The notes under the pieces are model-generated. The model did not search any database, was not told where the DNA came from, and saw nothing but the letters and a program-made list of their open reading frames with translations. This document shows positions 1 to 10,082 of a stretch of 10,082 bases of DNA, one piece after another. The translations under genes were made by a program, and so were the position numbers. Source of the stretch: a virus (taxonomy: Duplodnaviria; Heunggongvirae; Uroviricota; Caudoviricetes); the IMG/VR virus record IMGVR_UViG_2541047688_000002; one strand, 5' to 3'. The stretch's first letter is position 1. Each line of letters opens with the position of its first letter.

Positions 1-905
1 GTCCACATGCCCGTGTTTTCACAGATCCACCGCCCGTTACTCTGGTCAAGCTCAGACTGATGGATCACACAGCCATGATGCTCACAAAGGTAGAAAACAC
101 TTTCTGGCTTATTCTTCTCCCACTTAAGACCGAAAGGCGAGGCATCATCGCCAAATTTCAGATACTGCTCCTCCCCACAGTGCGGACAGGGCACATAAAA
201 ACGCATGAAGTGTGCCGACTCGTTAGCGGCTTTTTCGATCTGGCAGGAGCCTTTGATTTTAGGCGTCGAGCCGCGAATGGATTTTGGCCATACAGAGCCC
301 TCAATACGTTTATCCCCCAGCAGGGTTGGCGAACCCTCTTTTTCAACATCCGGTTCGAACGAGGAAAGCTCGTCATAACAGACCACATCCACGGATTTTT
401 CACGGTAGTTTTTTGCTGCCGCACCACCCAGACACCAGAACCCCACACCGGAGGAAAAACGCTTCAGGGTGAGCGTATTATCGCGGTGTTTTCTTCCGAA
501 CCATGGAGCCAGCTCCAGCAATGCAGGAACATCCCTTATCGTTGGCTCAACATGAGATTTCATAAAATCTTCAGCAGCTGAGTCCGTGGGCTGAAAAAGA
601 AGGCTGTTGCGTGATTTATGCTCAATAAAATAAGCCTCCACTCCCAGCAACATCTTTGTATAACCAACACGGGCAGATTTAATCAGGTTAACCGTGCGAA
701 TCAGATCGTTGCCCATACAGTTCATGATGCCAACCTGAAACGGCAGTGTTTCCCATCGCCCCGGGGTATAAGACGACTCTTTAGGAAGGTAATAATGTTT
801 ATTGGCCCACTGAACTGTCGTCAGTGGAACAGGAATAATGAGAGATAAAAGCCCTGTAGCTATCGCACCGGCTGCATTAGCTGCCTTCTGCGCGTCTGAA
901 ATCAT
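1..905 (-). CDS. A: Terminase large subunit (lambda gpA-like), N-terminal ~301 codons; CDS continues past the window start
   Basis: Minus-strand frame reads continuously from ATG (revcomp of 903-905) to position 1: [13 protein letters not shown]...[27 protein letters not shown]...[35 protein letters not shown]. These match lambda gpA as recalled (e.g. [44 protein letters not shown]). The ATG lies 26 nt upstream of the Nu1 stop, the same overlap as in lambda. Absent from the ORF track because it runs off the window. Confidence 0.9.
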
Positions 906-1425
906 CGATCCACCCGCCCACGTTTTCACCGGCCTTAGCTGCAACATTGGAGGCTTTCGCGATTTCAGTTTTCACCACATCAAGGTGTGATGGTGAAATG
1001 TCCGGATATTTACGCTGTAATGTCAACGGCACACGCACAAGTATCCCCGAAATCTCCTGTGCCACACGTTGCAGAATGAAGGTAAACAGTTCAGTTTCCA
1101 GCACTACTCCGTCTTCACGGGCATTTTTCAGTTCCTGCGCATCTGCCTGCGCTTTTGTGAGCCGGTAGCGTTCATAGTCAATGGTGCCGGGTTGTAAATC
1201 TGACTCCGCTGCCGCACGCAAATCGTCCAGTTCTTTGCGGAGCTTTTCGTTTTCGATATCAGTTTCCCTCTGCGCATACCACTGAATTGCCATGGCAGTA
1301 TCAAATACAGATTCAATGCCCTTACTGCCTTTGGAGACGCAAGGGAGCCCCTGAGACTGCCAGCGTTCAATCGTCCGCGGGTCCACGTTGAAAATTTCGG
1401 CAAGCCTCTTTTTATTAACCTTCAT
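877..1425 (-). CDS. nu1: Terminase small subunit (lambda Nu1-like; nohD/nohB-type)
   Basis: ORF-track protein [29 protein letters not shown]...[29 protein letters not shown] closely parallels lambda Nu1 (MEVNKKQLADIFGASIRTIQNWQEQGMP...[28 protein letters not shown]). ATG at 1423-1425 (revcomp); sits between cos and gpA. Confidence 0.9.
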
Positions 1426-1625
1426 GAAAACAACCCATTATCAAATACAAGGCCCGACATGAAAACGCCAGAAAAAGGCATTTTCGGACACTTTCATGTC
1501 GGACCTTTACGGATGCAATATTAAAAAAAACAAAAAGTTATATTCGAGAAGTACCGACACGATTTTCCCTGAAAAATTTTCATAAATAGTGAAAAACCGC
1601 GAGGTCGCCGCCCCGTAACCTGTTG
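1426..1625 (-). other. cos DNA-packaging site: cosB (1426-1591), cosN 12-nt cohesive-end sequence (1592-1603), cosQ side (1604-1625)
   Basis: Revcomp of 1592-1603 is GGGCGGCGACCT, the lambda cohesive-end sequence. The adjacent minus-strand sequence GGGCGGCGACCTCGCGGTTTTTCACTATTTATGAAAATTTT matches the lambda left end as recalled. Revcomp of 1604-1612 is CAGGTTACG, as at the lambda right end. cosB holds inverted 11-bp repeats CCGACATGAAA (1454-1464) / TTTCATGTCGG (1493-1503) and an A-tract at 1524-1531, consistent with Nu1 R-sites and an IHF bend. Confidence 0.8.
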
Positions 1626-1761
1626 GATCGACGGAAAGGACCCGAAAACGAGAATAATTATCACTTACAGCAAGAATCGAATCTGATCTATTATGGTGCT
1701 TGCTATTATGTGCCGGCACAAGTGCGTCGTTTACCGTCATTTCACACAGAGGCATCATCAA

Positions 1762-2013
1762 ATGAAAATCAGAAATATTCTCGCTATCTCCCTTGCGACA
1801 TCATCCTTCAGTTGCCTGGCATTTAAATCCTCGCCCAATGTGCTACCAGGACCAACGAATCAACTAACTGCGGTAGAAAGTAAAATTATCGGACATTTTT
1901 ATGCCCCACACAGTACATTACCCGGAACAACCATCACAGGGACATGTGACGCCTCCCCCGTCCCGGGATGCACCTGTCCGTTTTGTACTATGCTGCGTAG
2001 CCAAAACCGATAA
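1762..2013 (+). CDS. Hypothetical small secreted protein (83 aa) with a Cys-rich C-terminus
   Basis: ATG at 1762 with AGAGG 10 nt upstream. N-terminus MKIRNILAISLATSSFSCLA looks like a signal peptide; C-terminus TGTCDASPVPGCTCPFC. Overlaps an alternative frame (1901-2074), so coding status is uncertain. Confidence 0.3.
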   Translation: MKIRNILAISLATSSFSCLAFKSSPNVLPGPTNQLTAVESKIIGHFYAPHSTLPGTTITGTCDASPVPGCTCPFCTMLRSQNR

Positions 2014-2074
2014 CATCCGCATTTACCTGGTATTCCATGATGAGTTCACGCAGCGACTGATAGAGGAAGGAAAG

Positions 2075-2254
2075 ATGGTTAGTAAAAGCAAGGCGCATTG
2101 CCGCCGCATGCTGCAGGCATTGCAACAGACGAGAGCAGGTATTTTTGACCAGTTGGAAAACTGCCAGCATACTTTGCCCGAGTATATCGCCATCTCATCG
2201 GAAACCAGTGCAACTCTTATTCATCGGGTTCCACCAGAGAAAAAGAAGAAATGA
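2075..2254 (+). CDS. Hypothetical 59-aa basic protein
   Basis: Strong SD GAGGAAGGAAAG immediately upstream of ATG 2075. Protein MVSKSKAHCRRMLQALQQTRAGIFDQLENCQHTLPEYIAISSETSATLIHRVPPEKKKK. Stop TGA overlaps the next ATG (ATGA at 2251-2254). Confidence 0.4.
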   Translation: MVSKSKAHCRRMLQALQQTRAGIFDQLENCQHTLPEYIAISSETSATLIHRVPPEKKKK

Positions 2255-2388
2255 ACAGTGAGGCGTTGTGTGGCATACAACGCCTTCTTCCATCATTCCT
2301 CGTCAGCCATGACAAAAATATAACCGCTGGCTCTTTCATTTTTCTCCTGCTTCCAGCCCCTCTCTACCTGGAAGCATCAAGGACGTGA
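2251..2388 (+). CDS. Hypothetical 45-aa hydrophobic peptide, translationally coupled to the upstream ORF
   Basis: ATG 2251-2253 overlaps the upstream stop (ATGA). Translation MNSEALCGIQRLLPSFLVSHDKNITAGSFIFLLLPAPLYLEASRT has a hydrophobic core. Below the ORF-track length cutoff. The 3' end overlaps the convergent lipoprotein gene by 12 nt. Confidence 0.3.
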   Translation: MNSEALCGIQRLLPSFLVSHDKNITAGSFIFLLLPAPLYLEASRT

Positions 2389-2703
2389 CGGCGTAAAGAT
2401 AAATTGTCTCTTCACTCCCTGACAGGGGCGATTCTTTTCAAATCGCCATTTCGCCATGGCCTTCACCACTTCATCACGAAACAAATTATGAGGCTCTGAG
2501 CGGAGAAAAACGATCCGTGTCACAGTCCCATCAGCACCAATATCGAACTTAACCTCAACCAGCCCCTTGATATAATTTGCTGCAGCATATTCCGGATATC
2601 GTGGATACACCGTCACTAATTGCCGGGGCTCATCAGCTTTTTGCTGCGAGCATCCCACTGCCAGGACAGATAACAGAAAAAGTAGTAAAAGGCGTCTTTT
2701 CAT
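2377..2703 (-). CDS. Prophage lipoprotein with a TonB C-terminal-domain fold (candidate TonB-CTD decoy); start at internal Met 19 of the track ORF
   Basis: ATG at 2701-2703 (revcomp) with AGGA 6 nt upstream. Signal peptide plus lipobox MKRRLLLLFLLSVLAVG|CSQQ (Ser at +2). Mature region YPRYPEYAAANYIKGLVEVKFDIGADGTVTRIVFLRSEPHNLFRDEVVKAMAKWRFE aligns with the E. coli TonB C-terminal domain as recalled ([54 protein letters not shown]). Confidence 0.75.
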   Translation of the reverse strand: MKRRLLLLFLLSVLAVGCSQQKADEPRQLVTVYPRYPEYAAANYIKGLVEVKFDIGADGTVTRIVFLRSEPHNLFRDEVVKAMAKWRFEKNRPCQGVKRQFIFTPSRP

Positions 2704-3183
2704 TTTTATTCCTACGGGTCTTATTCTGACAATATATCCTGTGTTCCAGACTGCCACATCACCACATCCTGTGCCATTATCTGACTCACATTACATACAT
2801 CGCATCGGGATACAGTAGTAGCACTTTCTGTAATACAGCTTCCTGTTTCTTCCACCATCGCACCGGGATAAACCCGCGAATCATTAACGCGGTAAAAACC
2901 CGGTGTGCATCGTTTTTAATTATTCCCGCACACTCACGCAGAAGGAATTCCCCGTCGGGCTACGGTCATGGTTAATGCGGGAATACGGCGACGATACAGC
3001 GCAGCTAAAAGGGTAATGGACGGATAGACCGGTTTATTTCATTCCACAGGATTCTGAGTGTCCCCAACTTCCTCCAATAGTCTGAGCCCACCTGTGTAGT
3101 TTTAATTTTCATCAATCCATTTAACTATCGTTTAATTGTTGTCACATAGGATTCTGCCGTTTTTAACAATGCAGGATAATAAG

Positions 3184-3477
3184 ATGAAAAAAATGTTGTT
3201 TTCTGCCGCTCTGGCAATGCTTATTACAGGATGTGCTCAACAGACGTTTACTGTTGGAAACAAACCTACAGCAGTAACACCAAAGGAAACCATCACCCAT
3301 CATTTCTTCGTTTCGGGAATTGGGCAGAAGAAAACTGTCGATGCAGCAAAAATTTGTGGTGGTGCAGAAAATGTTGTTAAAACAGAAACCCAGCAAACAT
3401 TCGTAAATGGATTGCTCGGTTTTATTACTTTAGGCATTTATACTCCGCTGGAAGCGCGTGTGTATTGCTCACAATAA
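3184..3477 (+). CDS. bor: Bor outer-membrane lipoprotein (serum-resistance lysogenic conversion protein)
   Basis: MKKMLFSAALAMLITGCAQQTFTVGNKPTAVTPKETITHHFFVSGIGQKKTVDAAKICGGAENVVKTETQQTFVNGLLGFITLGIYTPLEARVYCSQ is near-identical to lambda Bor as recalled. Lipobox LITGC; AGGA 7 nt upstream of ATG 3184. The track ORF begins further upstream at 3136. Confidence 0.9.
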   Translation: MKKMLFSAALAMLITGCAQQTFTVGNKPTAVTPKETITHHFFVSGIGQKKTVDAAKICGGAENVVKTETQQTFVNGLLGFITLGIYTPLEARVYCSQ

Positions 3478-3488
3478 TTGCATGAGTT

Positions 3489-3504
3489 GCCCATCGATAT
3501 GGGC
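3489..3504. other. Short palindrome GCCCATcgatATGGGC between the convergent bor and Rz 3' ends
   Basis: Perfect 6-bp stem with a 4-nt loop seen directly in the sequence; no adjacent T-tract, so terminator function is uncertain. Confidence 0.25.
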
Positions 3505-3508
3505 AGCT

Positions 3509-3970
3509 CTATCTGCACTGCTCATTAATATACTTCTGGGTTCCTTCCAGTTGTTTTTGCATAGTGATCAGCCTCTCTCTGAGGGTGAAATAATCCCGTT
3601 CAGCGGTGTCTGCCAGTCGGGGGGAGGCTGCATTATCCACGCCGGAGGCGGTGGTGGCTTCACGCACTGACTGACAGACTGCTTTGATGTGCAACCGACG
3701 ACGACCAGCGGCAACATCATCACGCAGAGCATCATTTTCAGCTTTCGCATCAGCTAACTCCTTCGTGTATTTTGCATCGAGCGCAGCAACATCACGCTGA
3801 CGCATCTGTATGTCAGTAATTGCCGCGTTCGCCAGCGTCAGTTCTCTGGCATTTTTGTCGCGCTGGGCTTTGTAGGTAATGGCGTTATCACGGTAATGAT
3901 TAACAGCCCATGACAGGCAGACGATGATGCAGATAACCAGAGCGGAGATAATCGCGGTTACTCTGTTCAT
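3509..3970 (-). CDS. Rz: Rz i-spanin (inner-membrane spanin subunit)
   Basis: [53 protein letters not shown]... matches lambda Rz as recalled. ATG (3968-3970 revcomp) overlaps the R stop as ATGA. The track ORF starts 4 codons earlier at a GTG. Confidence 0.9.
3568..3750 (-). CDS. Rz1: Rz1 o-spanin (outer-membrane lipoprotein) embedded in the +1 frame of Rz
   Basis: [60 protein letters not shown] has a lipobox VVGC and a proline-rich mature part; it matches lambda Rz1 as recalled and lies entirely inside Rz. Confidence 0.85.
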
Positions 3971-4464
3971 TGCTGACCCCACAAACAGATTTCACGCTCA
4001 ATCTCACGACGAGTCATGAGACCTTTCCATTGCTTACCGCCAGCATATGTCCAGCGACGTAGCTGATCACATGCGCCTTTGATATCGCCCTGGTTTATTT
4101 TGCGAAGAAGCGTCGATGTTCTGAAATTGCCAGCACCCACGTTGTAAACGAATGAGTAAAGAGCGCCGCGCATTGTTTCCGGTATATCGACTTTGATGTA
4201 CGGGTTAATTTGTCTGGCGACCGTGGCAAGGTCTTTATTCAGGAGGGCTTTGCATTCTGCTTTGGTATACGTTTTACCGAGCATGATGTCTTTTCCTGTA
4301 TGCCCGTGACATACAGTCCATACACCAACAATATCTTTGTATGGTATGTAGCTGACACCTTCCAGACCATCGTTACCACTTGGGCCAGTGATTAACACTG
4401 ATGCTATAGCAATTGCTCCGCCACCAATAGCAGCAGCAACGGCTTTTCGTAATGATGGAGGCAT
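3967..4464 (-). CDS. R: SAR endolysin (phage 21 R21-type lysozyme with an N-terminal signal-arrest-release domain)
   Basis: [44 protein letters not shown]... has a Gly/Ala-rich weakly hydrophobic N-terminal SAR segment followed by a lysozyme domain, matching phage 21 R as recalled. The start overlaps the S stop (TAATG). Confidence 0.9.
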
Positions 4465-4679
4465 TATTCACCTCTCGCAGCCTTGCGCTTATCTTCTTTA
4501 ATCTTGAAATAAAGGTTTGTCAGGTACGTCAGCAGGCCAAATACCAGGCTACCCAGCACACCTATTGCCGCCCACTGTGAGGGCGTGACTTTATCGAGCA
4601 ACTGTAAAAACCAGTACCCGGCACTACCTGCTGAGGTACCATAGGCGACACCCGTTGTTAACTTATCCATGGATTTCAT
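4464..4679 (-). CDS. S: Pinholin (phage 21 S21-type holin, class II, dual start)
   Basis: [71 protein letters not shown] has two transmembrane segments and a dual-start motif (Met1 and Met4), matching S21 as recalled. Confidence 0.9.
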
Positions 4680-4808
4680 AACCCCACCTCGCAGACAAAG
4701 CGGGTGTAAATTAAGGGGATACTACGTATCGCAATAAAGGCAGAAACGTAACAGATTCGGAGTCAGTGAATAACTCAGGTATTGGGTTATCAGCTAATAT
4801 CGAGACTC

Positions 4809-4842
4809 AAAAAATGGAAAAACCCGCTCGACGGCGGGTTTA
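4809..4842 (-). terminator. Putative intrinsic terminator (hairpin CCCGC-tcgacg-GCGGG flanked by an A-run and a T-run), stronger for the minus strand
   Basis: Stem 4823-4827 / 4834-4838. On the minus strand the stem is followed by UUUCCAUUUUUUG (revcomp of 4805-4820); on the plus strand only TTTA follows. Lies upstream of S on the late strand. Confidence 0.45.
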
Positions 4843-5267
4843 AGCTGTGTGACGAAGTAACCACTCTTAACAGCATAACCAATTTTTTACGTACGTAAAC
4901 TACTAAATGATATTTGTGAGAATGCCACCGAGTGTTCAAAACACCACCACAAATGCATAAGAAAACTTCAACAAATAACCAGTTAATAATTTCCGATGTT
5001 ATTTTTAGTTTGTTTAAATTAAGCTAAAGAATTATAGAGCACTTATAAATAAGTGCCATTAATATAAATTAGCTAATAGATTTATTTTTGTTCAGACAAG
5101 AGCCATGAATAGGATTAGATAGAAAAGGTTCAGATAAAAATAGAGATCTACTTCACAAATTAAATGAGAAACTAAAACTTACATCTTGAAATAATCACAT
5201 TGATTAGATGAATATTTATCGCGCAGTGACATCATTTTTTAATAAAAGTTCAAAAAAAGGGCGTACA

Positions 5268-6350
5268 ATGAAAAAATTAACAGTGGCAATTTCTGCTGTA
5301 GCTGCATCAGTACTGATGGCGATGTCTGCTCAGGCAGCTGAAATTTATAATAAAGACAGTAACAAGCTGGATCTATACGGGAAAGTTAATGCCAAGCACT
5401 ACTTCTCCTCTAATGATGCAGATGATGGTGATACTACTTATGCCCGTCTTGGCTTCAAAGGTGAAACCCAAATCAACGATCAACTGACTGGTTTCGGTCA
5501 GTGGGAATATGAATTCAAAGGCAACCGTGCTGAATCTCAAGGTTCTTCCAAAGACAAAACCCGTCTTGCATTTGCAGGCCTGAAATTTGGTGATTACGGC
5601 TCAATCGATTACGGCCGTAACTACGGTGTAGCATACGACATCGGTGCGTGGACTGACGTTCTGCCAGAATTCGGTGGTGATACCTGGACCCAAACAGATG
5701 TGTTCATGACTGGTCGCACTACTGGTGTTGCAACTTATCGTAACAACGACTTCTTTGGTCTGGTCGATGGCCTGAACTTTGCTGCTCAGTATCAGGGTAA
5801 AAATGACCGCACTGACGTAACTGAAGCCAATGGTGATGGTTTCGGTTTCTCCACTACTTATGAGTATGAAGGATTCGGCGTGGGTGCAACCTATGCTAAA
5901 TCAGATCGCACTGACGGTCAGGTCGCCTATGGTAAGAGCAAATTCAATGCCTCCGGCAAAAATGCGGAAGTATGGGCTGCAGGCCTGAAATATGATGCGA
6001 ACAATATCTATCTGGCTACCACATATTCTGAAACTCAGAATATGACCGTTTTTGGTAATAACCATATTGCAAACAAAGCACAAAACTTTGAAGCAGTAGC
6101 ACAATATCAGTTTGACTTCGGTCTGCGTCCATCTGTTGCTTACCTTCAGTCAAAAGGTAAAGACCTTGGTGTTCATGGTGACCGAGACTTAGTCAAGTAT
6201 GTCGATGTCGGTGCTACTTACTACTTTAATAAAAACATGTCCACTTTTGTTGATTACAAAATCAACTTAATTGACGATAGTAAGTTTACCAAAACAGCTG
6301 GTATTGATACCGACGACATCGTCGCTGTAGGTCTGGTTTATCAGTTCTAA
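5268..6350 (+). CDS. nmpC: General diffusion porin of the OmpC/OmpF/PhoE family, prophage-encoded (NmpC / Lc-type)
   Basis: Signal peptide [23 protein letters not shown]|AEIYNK; porin hallmarks ([17 protein letters not shown]..., C-terminal VAVGLVYQF ending in Phe). Position between Q and S matches nmpC in DLP12 and lc in PA-2. The track ORF begins at 5208, but 5268 gives a proper signal peptide and an AAGGG SD. Confidence 0.9.
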
Positions 6351-6361
6351 TCTGACTTACG

Positions 6362-6401
6362 AAAAAGATATGTTGCGGGAGGCTTTGCCTCCGCAACATA
6401 T
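6362..6401 (-). terminator. Putative tR'-like intrinsic terminator for the late (minus-strand) transcript
   Basis: Imperfect 14-15-bp inverted repeat ATATGTTGCGGGAGG / CCTCCGCAACATAT (6368-6401). On the minus strand it is followed by CUUUUUCG (revcomp of 6360-6367). It ends about 180 nt downstream of the Q stop, comparable to the lambda pR'-tR' distance. Confidence 0.5.
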
Positions 6402-6538
6402 AAGTGGAGCCCTCAAGCCACTTCCTTTAGAAGCACTACCTTGCTTCTTACTATATAAACCTTCTGTTATATATTACCCTTTATTTTGGGGGCGTTTCCA
6501 CGCCCCATTTTTAATAACTTTTAGTAAACAATTGCATA
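6402..6538 (-). promoter_or_regulatory. Predicted late promoter pR' / qut region downstream of Q (exact -35/-10 not resolved)
   Basis: Positional inference from lambdoid late-operon architecture (Q, then pR'/qut, then tR'). AT-rich with several TATAAT-like hexamers on the minus strand (TATTAA, TAATAT, TATAGT); no confident -35/-10 pairing could be made by eye. Confidence 0.35.
6489..6512 (+). terminator. Putative intrinsic terminator for the porin transcript
   Basis: GGGGCGT-ttcc-ACGCCCC, a 7-bp GC-rich stem (6489-6506), followed by ATTTTT on the plus strand; about 140 nt downstream of the porin stop. Confidence 0.5.
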
Positions 6539-6922
6539 TCAATTAGAATTATTAGCAACGATATCCATATCTAACCGGATATCTAATGCCATTAACATCC
6601 CTTCAATTATGCCCTCAGCCTTCTGTAACCTTTTCCCGATATAACCATCCGAGCAGCAATGCTTACTTGCCAGTGACATGAATGTCATACCACATACATA
6701 ATAATCTACTAATAAATCGTGTAAATCGCTGTTGTTCTTTTTCAGACGGGCCATGCACCCGCAAATGATCATCGCGTCATCGTCACAACATTGCGGGCGA
6801 GATTTTACTTTTGAAGGAATTAATCCCTTAAAACCGGCGGCAATGGACGACCAGGTCACATCTTCATGATTATTAGCCGCCCACGCCCCCCAACGCTCAA
6901 GAACCATCTGAATATCACGCAT
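6539..6922 (-). CDS. Q: Late-gene antiterminator Q (QuuD / phage 21-82 type)
   Basis: [62 protein letters not shown]... matches DLP12 QuuD as recalled, with a Cys-rich zinc-binding region. ATG at 6920-6922 (revcomp); the track start 5 codons upstream is a TTG. Confidence 0.85.
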
Positions 6923-7007
6923 CAACTTACTCCACAAAAATCAGACCAGAACGCCAATTACAAGCAAAAATCAACAAAACAGTATTAGTTGATTGTTATC
7001 TCTGACT

Positions 7008-7148
7008 TCATACTCCTGTTCCTGTCAGGGTTTTGGCGTAATTCTTCAGTATTCGGTAATCGGTCAAAACAGAACCGAGGAAACGATATAAGCGCAGACG
7101 CCCCCAGCGGTGGCGAAGAAGTTCTGCCATATTAAACTCAAACATCAT
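7008..7148 (-). CDS. ylcG: YlcG-like small protein (46 aa) of the lambdoid nin region
   Basis: Translation MMFEFNMAELLRHRWGRLRLYRFLGSVLTDYRILKNYAKTLTGTGV matches DLP12 YlcG as recalled; its start overlaps the rusA stop. Below the ORF-track length cutoff. Confidence 0.6.
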   Translation of the reverse strand: MMFEFNMAELLRHRWGRLRLYRFLGSVLTDYRILKNYAKTLTGTGV

Positions 7149-7196
7149 TCATTCCCCATTTCGGTGATGGTCAGTTCCAGCCTCCCACCTTTGGTA
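7145..7196 (-). pseudogene. rusA: 3' remnant of rusA (Holliday-junction resolvase), last 16 codons only, truncated by IS911
   Basis: Minus-strand translation immediately left of the IS911 end is TKGGRLELTITEMGNE-stop, matching the RusA C-terminus as recalled. The rest of the gene is not found on the other side of the IS. Confidence 0.6.
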
Positions 7197-7232
7197 TGAA
7201 GTGGTTTACTGAATTTGGCCACCTGAACAGAG
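7197..7232 (+). repeat. IS911 left terminal inverted repeat (IRL)
   Basis: Begins TGAAGTGG; pairs with the right end at 8411-8446. Confidence 0.8.
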
Positions 7233-7268
7233 GTGATATGCTCACCTCAGAACAACACAGGTGCCATA

Positions 7269-8446
<1,178 letters not shown>

Positions 8447-8663
8447 CAACGCCGTTAAGCACATAGCTAACGCAAAACAACAGGATGTAATACATCCAGT
8501 AATGAGGAAGGATTTCTGGACTATGCAGGTTTATCCATTCTTTTACGCTTACCGGCATAACAATAATCAATATGATCAGGATGATTAGCATATGAATCAA
8601 CTGTTTAAGTGTCATTCCTTGCAGGAAAAAATGCATTAGTTCCTGCCACCATGAGTTGTTCAT
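8447..8663 (-). pseudogene. 5' portion (about 72 codons) of a small membrane-protein gene, apparently truncated by the IS911 right end
   Basis: MNNSWWQELMHFFLQGMTLKQLIHMLIILIILIIVMPVSVKEWINLHSPEILPHYWMYYILLFCVSYVLNGVVKW has two hydrophobic segments. The track ORF (8292-8663) continues into IS911 only by chance. Weak RBS. Confidence 0.3.
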
Positions 8664-8806
8664 CGGCGTTTCTCTTTTGCTCTCTGTAGGGGTGAATAGA
8701 GTTTATCCGATTTCTCGTTGTAGGGGTACACGAGAACCACCGAGCCTGATGTGGTTAAAAGACAGGCACAATCTTTACTACCGCAATCCACTATTTAAGG
8801 TGATAT

Positions 8807-8893
8807 ATGGAAGAAGAATTTGAAGAGTTCGAAGAGCATCCTCAAGATGTGATGGAACAATACCAGGACTATCCGTATGACTACGACTATTGA
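8807..8893 (+). CDS. Hypothetical 28-aa highly acidic, aromatic-rich peptide
   Basis: Strong SD AAGGTG 5 nt upstream of ATG 8807. Translation MEEEFEEFEEHPQDVMEQYQDYPYDYDY. Overlaps the start of the next ORF by 17 nt. Below the ORF-track cutoff. Confidence 0.35.
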   Translation: MEEEFEEFEEHPQDVMEQYQDYPYDYDY

Positions 8894-9077
8894 TACAAAT
8901 CAATGGTGTGGACAATTCAAACGATGCAATGGATGCAAGCTGCAATCGGAATGCATGGTTAAGCCTGAAGAAATGTTTCCTGTAATGGAAGATGGGAAAT
9001 ATGTCGATAAATGGGCAATACGAACGACGGCAATGATTGCCAGAGAACTTGGTAAACAGAACAACAAAGCTGCCTGA
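8877..9077 (+). CDS. Hypothetical 66-aa Cys-rich protein (possible zinc-ribbon)
   Basis: MTTTIDTNQWCGQFKRCNGCKLQSECMVKPEEMFPVMEDGKYVDKWAIRTTAMIARELGKQNNKAA contains C-x5-C-x2-C-x5-C. The start lies inside the upstream acidic-peptide ORF, suggesting coupling. Confidence 0.45.
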   Translation: MTTTIDTNQWCGQFKRCNGCKLQSECMVKPEEMFPVMEDGKYVDKWAIRTTAMIARELGKQNNKAA

Positions 9078-9213
9078 TAGTGGCCTTTATTTTTGGCATA
9101 AATAACAGAATAAACACTGCACTGTGTATTCATTCCAACGAGTGAATACACGGAGCAATGTCGCTCGTAACTAAACAGGAGCCGACTTGTTCTGATTATT
9201 GGAAATCTTCTTT

Positions 9214-9239
9214 GCCCTCCAGTGTGAGGGCGATTTTTT
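9214..9239 (+). terminator. Intrinsic terminator / attenuator hairpin
   Basis: GCCCTC-cagtgt-GAGGGC (9214-9231) followed by GA then TTTTTT (9234-9239). Confidence 0.5.
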
Positions 9240-9259
9240 ATCTATGAGGATATGAATAG

Positions 9260-9628
9260 ATGTCAAACATCAAAAAATACATCATTGATTACGACTGGAA
9301 AGCATCAATAGAAATTGAAATTGACCATGACGTAATGACAGAGGAAAAACTTCACCAGATTAATAATTTCTGGTCAGACTCTGAATACCGACTCAATAAA
9401 CACGGCTCTGTATTAAATGCTGTATTAATCATGCTGGCGCAACATGCTCTGCTTATAGCAATTTCAAGCGACTTAAATGCATATGGTGTTGTGTGTGAGT
9501 TCGACTGGAATGATGGAAATGGTCAGGAAGGATGGCCTCCAATGGATGGTAGTGAAGGAATAAGAATTACCGATATCGATACATCAGGAATATTTGATTC
9601 AGATGATATGACTATCAAGGCCGCCTGA
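9260..9628 (+). CDS. Hypothetical 122-aa strongly acidic protein
   Basis: GAGGA 9 nt upstream of ATG 9260. About 22 Asp/Glu against about 8 Lys/Arg, with a C-terminal region rich in D/G/S (DWNDGNGQEGWPPMDGSEGIRITDIDTSGIFDSDDM). No family recognised from memory. Confidence 0.45.
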   Translation: MSNIKKYIIDYDWKASIEIEIDHDVMTEEKLHQINNFWSDSEYRLNKHGSVLNAVLIMLAQHALLIAISSDLNAYGVVCEFDWNDGNGQEGWPPMDGSEGIRITDIDTSGIFDSDDMTIKAA

Positions 9629-9662
9629 GCGCGGCGTTACCGCATACCAATTACGCTTCACT

Positions 9663-10082
<420 letters not shown>

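Follow-up and report, generated by a model that had tools for sequence, protein, structure and literature searches.

We found, with high confidence, that the 1.2-kb segment at positions 8447-9662 of the window (the whole 10,082-nt stretch of viral DNA analyzed here, IMG/VR record IMGVR_UViG_2541047688_000002) is a remnant of the early-left (pL) operon of a decaying lambda-like Escherichia coli prophage, lying between two independent insertion sequence (IS) insertions. In a megablast search of 5,426 complete E. coli genomes, the segment was 100% identical to DNA of CFT073 and many other E. coli (e.g., ABU 83972), in which it is annotated as encoding super-infection exclusion protein B, an antirestriction Ral family protein, and a DUF2528 family protein. 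Additionally, positions 8684-9662 matched positions 33502-34480 of phage lambda (NC_001416) at 98.3% DNA identity, and this lambda stretch carries ea10, ral, and orf28. The CFT073 counterpart of the segment belongs to a lambdoid prophage, in which it is flanked by the N gene and the cIII-kil-gam-bet-exo genes, and positions 1-7196 of the window were 99.9% identical to CFT073 positions 1426356-1419161. The lambda-type prophage adjoins icd in related strains. Family assignments were obtained for all four ORFs of the segment with Pfam (Ral, DUF2528, and a partial SieB) and PHROG, which also covered orf28. Based on these matches, one strand of the segment carries the 5' third of sieB, and the other carries orf28, ral, PreS/LPR1 with the terminator tL2a, and ea10 (Table 1). 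No observation spoke against this identification. The biology of such a segment is already known: these are well-known lambda genes in a textbook part of lambda that has been scarred by insertion sequences.

The first-pass annotation, made from the letters and a list of ORFs, had described an inverted IS pair, a truncated membrane-protein gene, a highly acidic peptide overlapping the start of a Cys-rich protein, and an acidic 122-aa protein, and all of these positions and ORF assignments hold. It had also proposed a Pfam search of the segment proteins, which identified Ral (E 1.7e-48) and DUF2528 (E 1.8e-47), and a look for the segment in other genomes, where it was found free of flanking IS copies, without a single mismatch, in the prophages of CFT073 and many other E. 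coli. Homology to well-characterized families, which the same annotation had named as speaking against its interpretation, was indeed obtained.

Table 1. Features identified in and around the segment at positions 8447-9662 of the window.
Feature	Positions	Strand	Description
rusA 3' remnant (last 52 nt)	7145..7196	-	Left edge of the 9.2-kb deletion; CFT073 rusA annotated at 1418850-1419212
ISEc52 copy 1	7197..8446	+	IS3 family, IS911-like, 1250 bp; terminal inverted repeats, HTH_Tnp_1 and rve domains
sieB'	8447..8663	-	First 72 codons of a 193-codon superinfection-exclusion gene; Pfam SieB, PHROG 1301
orf28	8807..8893	+	28-aa hyper-acidic ORF; strong Shine-Dalgarno (AAGGTGAT); protein identity with lambda
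ral	8877..9077	+	Antirestriction (restriction-alleviation) protein Ral, 66 aa; Pfam PF11058
PreS/LPR1 putative small RNA	9153..9240	+	About 88 nt, 5' end approximate; identity with lambda
ea10	9260..9628	+	Ea10/DUF2528 protein, 122 aa, acidic; Pfam PF10800
ACT, 3-bp target site of ISEc52 copy 2	9660..9662	.	In the ea10-cIII spacer
ISEc52 copy 2, IRR-proximal 420 nt	9663..10082	- (inverted)	100% complementary to 8027-8446

The segment shares with the lambda region sieB-orf28-ral-tL2a(PreS)-ea10 its gene order, strands, intergenic small RNA and terminator, as well as the overlap of orf28 with the ral start, which is 17 nt and identical in both, and the DNA identity given above applies to everything in the segment from the sieB-orf28 spacer onward. 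In contrast to lambda, the window carries a sieB allele of the CFT073/ev017 type, with the lambda match starting only at position 8684; moreover, sieB stops after codon 72, pL, N, and everything rightward to rusA are deleted, and IS elements are present on both sides of the segment. Gene content is also shared with the CFT073-type lambdoid prophage of B2 E. coli (NC_004431, 1403-1427 kb; also phages ev017 and PhiR57_1). Nevertheless, the CFT073 prophage retains 9170 bp between rusA and sieB, including its own IS3-family element between ren and ninB, and its ea10-cIII spacer contains no IS. In the remainder of the window, accessory genes were found at positions 5208-6350, 3136-3477, and 2377-2757, among the prophage late genes. 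One of them, located between Q and the lysis cassette, encodes an OmpC/NmpC-type porin; the other two encode the Bor-family lipoprotein Iss (increased serum survival) and a small protein with a TonB C-terminal domain. All three have the same annotation in the CFT073 and Nissle-type prophages, and the porin, Iss/Bor, and TonB-like genes are part of the gene content shared with CFT073.

The truncated membrane-protein gene seen in the first pass corresponds to codons 1-72 of sieB. Its product was identical to the N-terminus of CFT073 SieB and matched Pfam SieB (PF14163) at profile positions 2-49 of 147 (E 9.6e-09) and PHROG 1301 at positions 1-72 of 193, and the frame reads on into the IS as a 123-aa fusion ORF (8292-8663). 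A complete SieB has about 190 aa including a C-terminal part; the window holds a gene fragment, which is very probably non-functional. SieB aborts superinfecting phages and is inhibited by Esc, a protein encoded in frame within sieB (PMC3224144, PMC10883804).

The Cys-rich 66-aa protein was identified as Ral. It matched PF11058 from end to end (residues 1-66 on profile positions 1-66; 162.5 bits, cut-off 25) as well as PHROG 1055 ('restriction alleviation ral'), bears the PGAP label 'antirestriction Ral family protein', and is identical to lambda Ral in 65 of the 66 residues, with T7 in place of the lambda K7. The protein contains four Cys in the motif CX5CX2CX5C and has a computed net charge of +2, and its gene is positioned between sieB and ea10, with the orf28 overlap, as in lambda and CFT073. 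Ral makes type IA enzymes (EcoKI, EcoBI) methylate unmodified DNA faster, so that phage DNA escapes restriction (PMC12707154). We infer that Ral of the window would likewise alleviate type IA restriction via enhanced de novo methylation. An anti-restriction function had been suspected in the first-pass annotation and was linked there to the acidic ORFs; for the segment as a whole this was right, but the function belongs to the Cys-rich, slightly basic 66-aa protein. Lar (RalR) of the Rac prophage, a functional analogue of Ral, is a small prophage protein that alleviates EcoKI restriction and enhances modification, whereas the protein encoded in the window is a true member of the Ral family.

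A Ral-based scan of GTDB species representatives mostly returned what looks like contamination with phage lambda DNA. Among the species-representative assemblies with a Ral of 97-98% identity were those of Pseudoxanthomonas, Nocardioides, Paenibacillus, Shewanella, Bradyrhizobium, and Enterococcus, and these foreign-species matches were often on contigs of about 48.4-48.5 kb or of very low coverage.

The orf28 protein was identical to that of lambda (lambdap47, 34271-34357) and matched PHROG 16060 (phrog_16060; E 7e-19). It was unchanged in 101 of the 107 fetched loci that hold an orf28-like ORF, and 8 of the 11 variable sites were at third codon positions (binomial P about 0.009). In Providencia, where Ral is 74% identical, orf28 is kept as MEEDIEEFDEHPDDDMRQYQDYPYEYDY, with conservative changes and with the overlap preserved. 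Judging by its sequence, orf28 looks like a real gene. In Kluyvera genomosp. 1, the ral homologue (locus positions 2437-2694) is split into ORFs of 50 and 22 aa, apparently by a frameshift, and orf28 is shortened to 23 aa, suggesting that the pair is decaying there. Ea10 was identical to lambda Ea10 at all 122 of 122 residues and scored 160.6 bits against PF10800 (cut-off 22). An AlphaFold model of Ea10 built from 74 homologues showed a compact alpha/beta domain with a pLDDT of 95.2. Computed net charge and pI were -12 and 4.05 for orf28 and -14 and 4.28 for Ea10; these values, together with the four Cys of Ral, agree with the first-pass description of two highly acidic ORFs (28 and 122 aa) and a Cys-rich one (66 aa).

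The spacer between ral and ea10 is 182 nt long, and positions 9078-9243 were 100% identical to lambda. In lambda, LPR1, renamed PreS, is an Hfq-bound small RNA of about 88 nt between ral and ea10 that terminates at its 3' end in tL2a of the pL operon. Produced in the lytic cycle, it pairs with dnaN mRNA on Hfq and raises dnaN translation, so that more beta clamp is available to replicate the phage DNA (Silverman et al., bioRxiv 10.1101/2024.10.31.621285). The corresponding stretch of the window likewise ends in tL2a, an intrinsic terminator with its stem at positions 9212-9233 and a T-run behind it; putative PreS/LPR1 and tL2a are both present in the spacer, where they had been overlooked in the first reading. 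A search of positions 7000-10082 against Rfam gave no match, including no hit to a PreS model. Just 3' of ral, an imperfect 22-nt inverted repeat (82%; 9114-9161) is 100% conserved with lambda, and its right arm overlaps the approximate PreS 5' end; this repeat may contribute to the processing or the structure of the ral 3' UTR or of a PreS precursor.

The flanking elements had been called IS911. The element has terminal inverted repeats of 27 nt (TGAAGTGG..., 78% identity), orfA with an HTH domain, orfB with an rve (DDE) domain, and a -1 frameshift motif, all of which are features of the IS3 family and of ISEc52; in copy 1, orfA begins at 7260, followed by the A6G motif at 7520-7526 and the end of orfB at 8416. 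The element matched PGAP-labelled ISEc52 copies at 100% identity and an IS911-labelled Shigella dysenteriae copy at 94.2%. Under the ISfinder naming convention, which we take to require at least about 95% DNA identity for a shared name, the element falls short of IS911 proper, and ISEc52 is the correct name. The earlier name was close, as the element shares with IS911 its length of 1250 bp, the TGAAGTGG termini, orfA and orfB with the A6G -1 frameshift site, the rve (DDE) domain, and a 3-bp target duplication, and departs from it in DNA identity, as measured on that IS911-labelled copy.

When the flanks of copy 1 were mapped onto CFT073, the left flank mapped to 1419161 inside rusA and the right flank to 1409990 inside sieB, in identical orientation, and no target-site duplication was found (GTA on the left, CAA on the right). 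These results indicate that copy 1 marks a deletion of 9170 bp in CFT073 coordinates. The deletion removed the 5' part of rusA, the nin genes, the IS element present in CFT073, ren, P, O, cII, cro, the repressor gene cI, N, and the 3' part of sieB. It could have arisen by recombination between two direct IS copies or by an IS-mediated adjacent deletion. Intermediates carrying junction 1 or junction 2 alone were not found in complete RefSeq E. coli genomes.

With pL and N deleted, the genes that remain are without the promoter and antiterminator that normally serve them. No plus-strand promoter was predicted in a promoter scan of the segment, and transcription would thus be possible only via read-through from copy 1. 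The transposase transcript of copy 1, which reads in the same direction, would run on into orf28-ral and, without N, would mostly end at tL2a, upstream of ea10. Such read-through could give some Ral and PreS and little Ea10, and this would be the expression state of the source strain as far as the sequence allows it to be predicted.

The inverted match between the end of copy 1 and the visible part of copy 2, 1216 nt apart, is far beyond chance. The window matched the end of scaffold KE698919.1 (GCA_000456205.1) at 100% identity, and only 420 nt of copy 2 are visible because the right end of the window is the scaffold end. The left end of the window is a scaffold gap (a run of N) inside the terminase large-subunit gene; therefore, the truncation of features at both window ends is a matter of assembly. 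The complete sibling chromosome OZ039684.1 differs from the window by 3 mismatches in 10082 positions and contains the whole inverted second copy, beyond which cIII-kil-gam-bet-exo follow, colinear with CFT073. Copy 2 is flanked there by ...CTTCACT and ACTCGAGGCG..., and CFT073, without the IS, reads ...CTTCACT CGAGGCG. ACT is therefore present on both sides of copy 2, the far side being visible in the sibling chromosome alone, and this duplication of its own indicates that copy 2 arrived alone, by simple insertion into the ea10-cIII spacer. In OZ039684.1, copy 2 is split at ISEc52 nt 70-75 by a 2129-bp IS21-family element (istA/istB). This nested element lies just past the right end of the window (positions 5692-7820 of the locus taken from OZ039684.1), has a 6-bp duplication, and parts the outer end of copy 2 from its transposase genes.

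Several other explanations of the IS pair were considered. The window stops exactly at the end of KE698919.1, within a repeat, as might be the case if the inverted second copy were an artefact of assembly at a draft scaffold end; however, the independent complete chromosome OZ039684.1 has the identical junction and the entire second copy, which rules the artefact out and leaves it virtually no probability. The first-pass annotation had taken the bracketed segment for a composite-transposon-like or invertible unit. Two identical IS arms in inverted orientation do bracket it, and the cargo does include an antirestriction gene, in line with a composite transposon that mobilizes an anti-restriction cassette in its 1.2-kb insert. 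This reading is extremely improbable in light of the outer flanks, which are unlike (GTA left of copy 1, ACT right of copy 2), of the ACT/ACT duplication by which copy 2 inserted alone, and of copy 1 being a deletion junction within the prophage. The cargo is, moreover, colinear with the prophage DNA on either side, and copy 2 of the sibling is interrupted by the IS21-type element 70 nt from its outer end. A composite transposon would be expected to show a single duplication around the whole unit and to occur in more than one genomic context; neither was found, and the IS-segment-IS unit was present in one prophage context only. The junction-specific SieB'-IS fusion ORF was present in 3 contigs of a large contig collection, all in one prophage context. 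None of the three junctions was present in the 5,426 complete RefSeq E. coli genomes, and an exact-junction scan of GTDB species representatives gave no match, as expected from a set in which E. coli has a single representative.

An invertible unit, in which recombination between the 1250-bp inverted repeats would switch the expression of ral/ea10 or sieB', has in its favor that inverted repeats of 1.25 kb are, in principle, good substrates for RecA and that the arms are 100% identical over the visible 420 nt. Yet both available assemblies are in one orientation, which is the ancestral one, colinear with CFT073 and lambda; no net inversion can have become fixed, given the intact ACT/ACT around copy 2; and the promoter scan revealed no promoter arrangement for an inversion to switch. 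The interrupted copy 2 of the sibling also cuts the uninterrupted homology to 1181 bp, without abolishing it. We consider a switch of this kind very improbable. Occasional RecA-mediated inversion may occur, but the sequence shows no sign of it and no promoter logic that it would serve. Both the composite transposon and the invertible unit were rejected on the basis of the flanks, the target duplications, and the complete sibling genome, and the earlier suggestion is left unsupported by the 3-bp duplication of copy 2, the deletion junction at copy 1, and the colinearity of the segment. Instead, the two ISEc52 copies arrived by separate events, and the bracketing, neither a transposon nor a switch, is a by-product of the way IS copies accumulated in this dead prophage.

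It is unlikely that orf28, Ea10, or both act as DNA mimics or counter host defences in another way, as had been suggested. Both proteins are strongly acidic for their size (net -12 in 28 aa and net -14 in 122 aa) and are conserved beside ral in the lambdoid early operon, and the confident fold of Ea10 is apparently an orphan. Apart from N, the pL genes are all dispensable for plaque formation, ea10, ral, orf28, and sieB among them (PMC10695390), which is often true of accessory and anti-defence genes. However, the acidic ORFs matched no antirestriction, DNA-mimic, or defence family in Pfam and PADLOC, a sequence search of the PDB revealed no solved relative, and the searchable literature yielded no report of a function for Ea10, DUF2528, or orf28. 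The structure prediction that had been proposed for the 122-aa protein yielded a confident fold that resembles no known DNA mimic: it is a compact alpha/beta domain, as opposed to an elongated helical mimic, and Foldseek searches with the model gave no hit in the PDB and, in BFVD, a single distant member of the family. Compared with mimics such as Ocr and ArdA, Ea10 thus has the strong negative charge and lacks similarity to any known example. With no sequence match for the acidic ORFs and no fold match for Ea10, net charge is what remains of the mimic idea, and strong negative charge is necessary for DNA mimicry but far from sufficient.

The significance of the segment as a remnant of the pL operon lies mainly in correct annotation. 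Ea10 and orf28 are two of the unexplained genes of lambda, and the window adds nothing new on either. The anti-restriction function resides in Ral and not in the acidic ORFs, and a seemingly empty spacer hosts a recently described small RNA, PreS. Additionally, an IS pair around a cargo need not be a transposon, and in this prophage the target duplications show two separate events.
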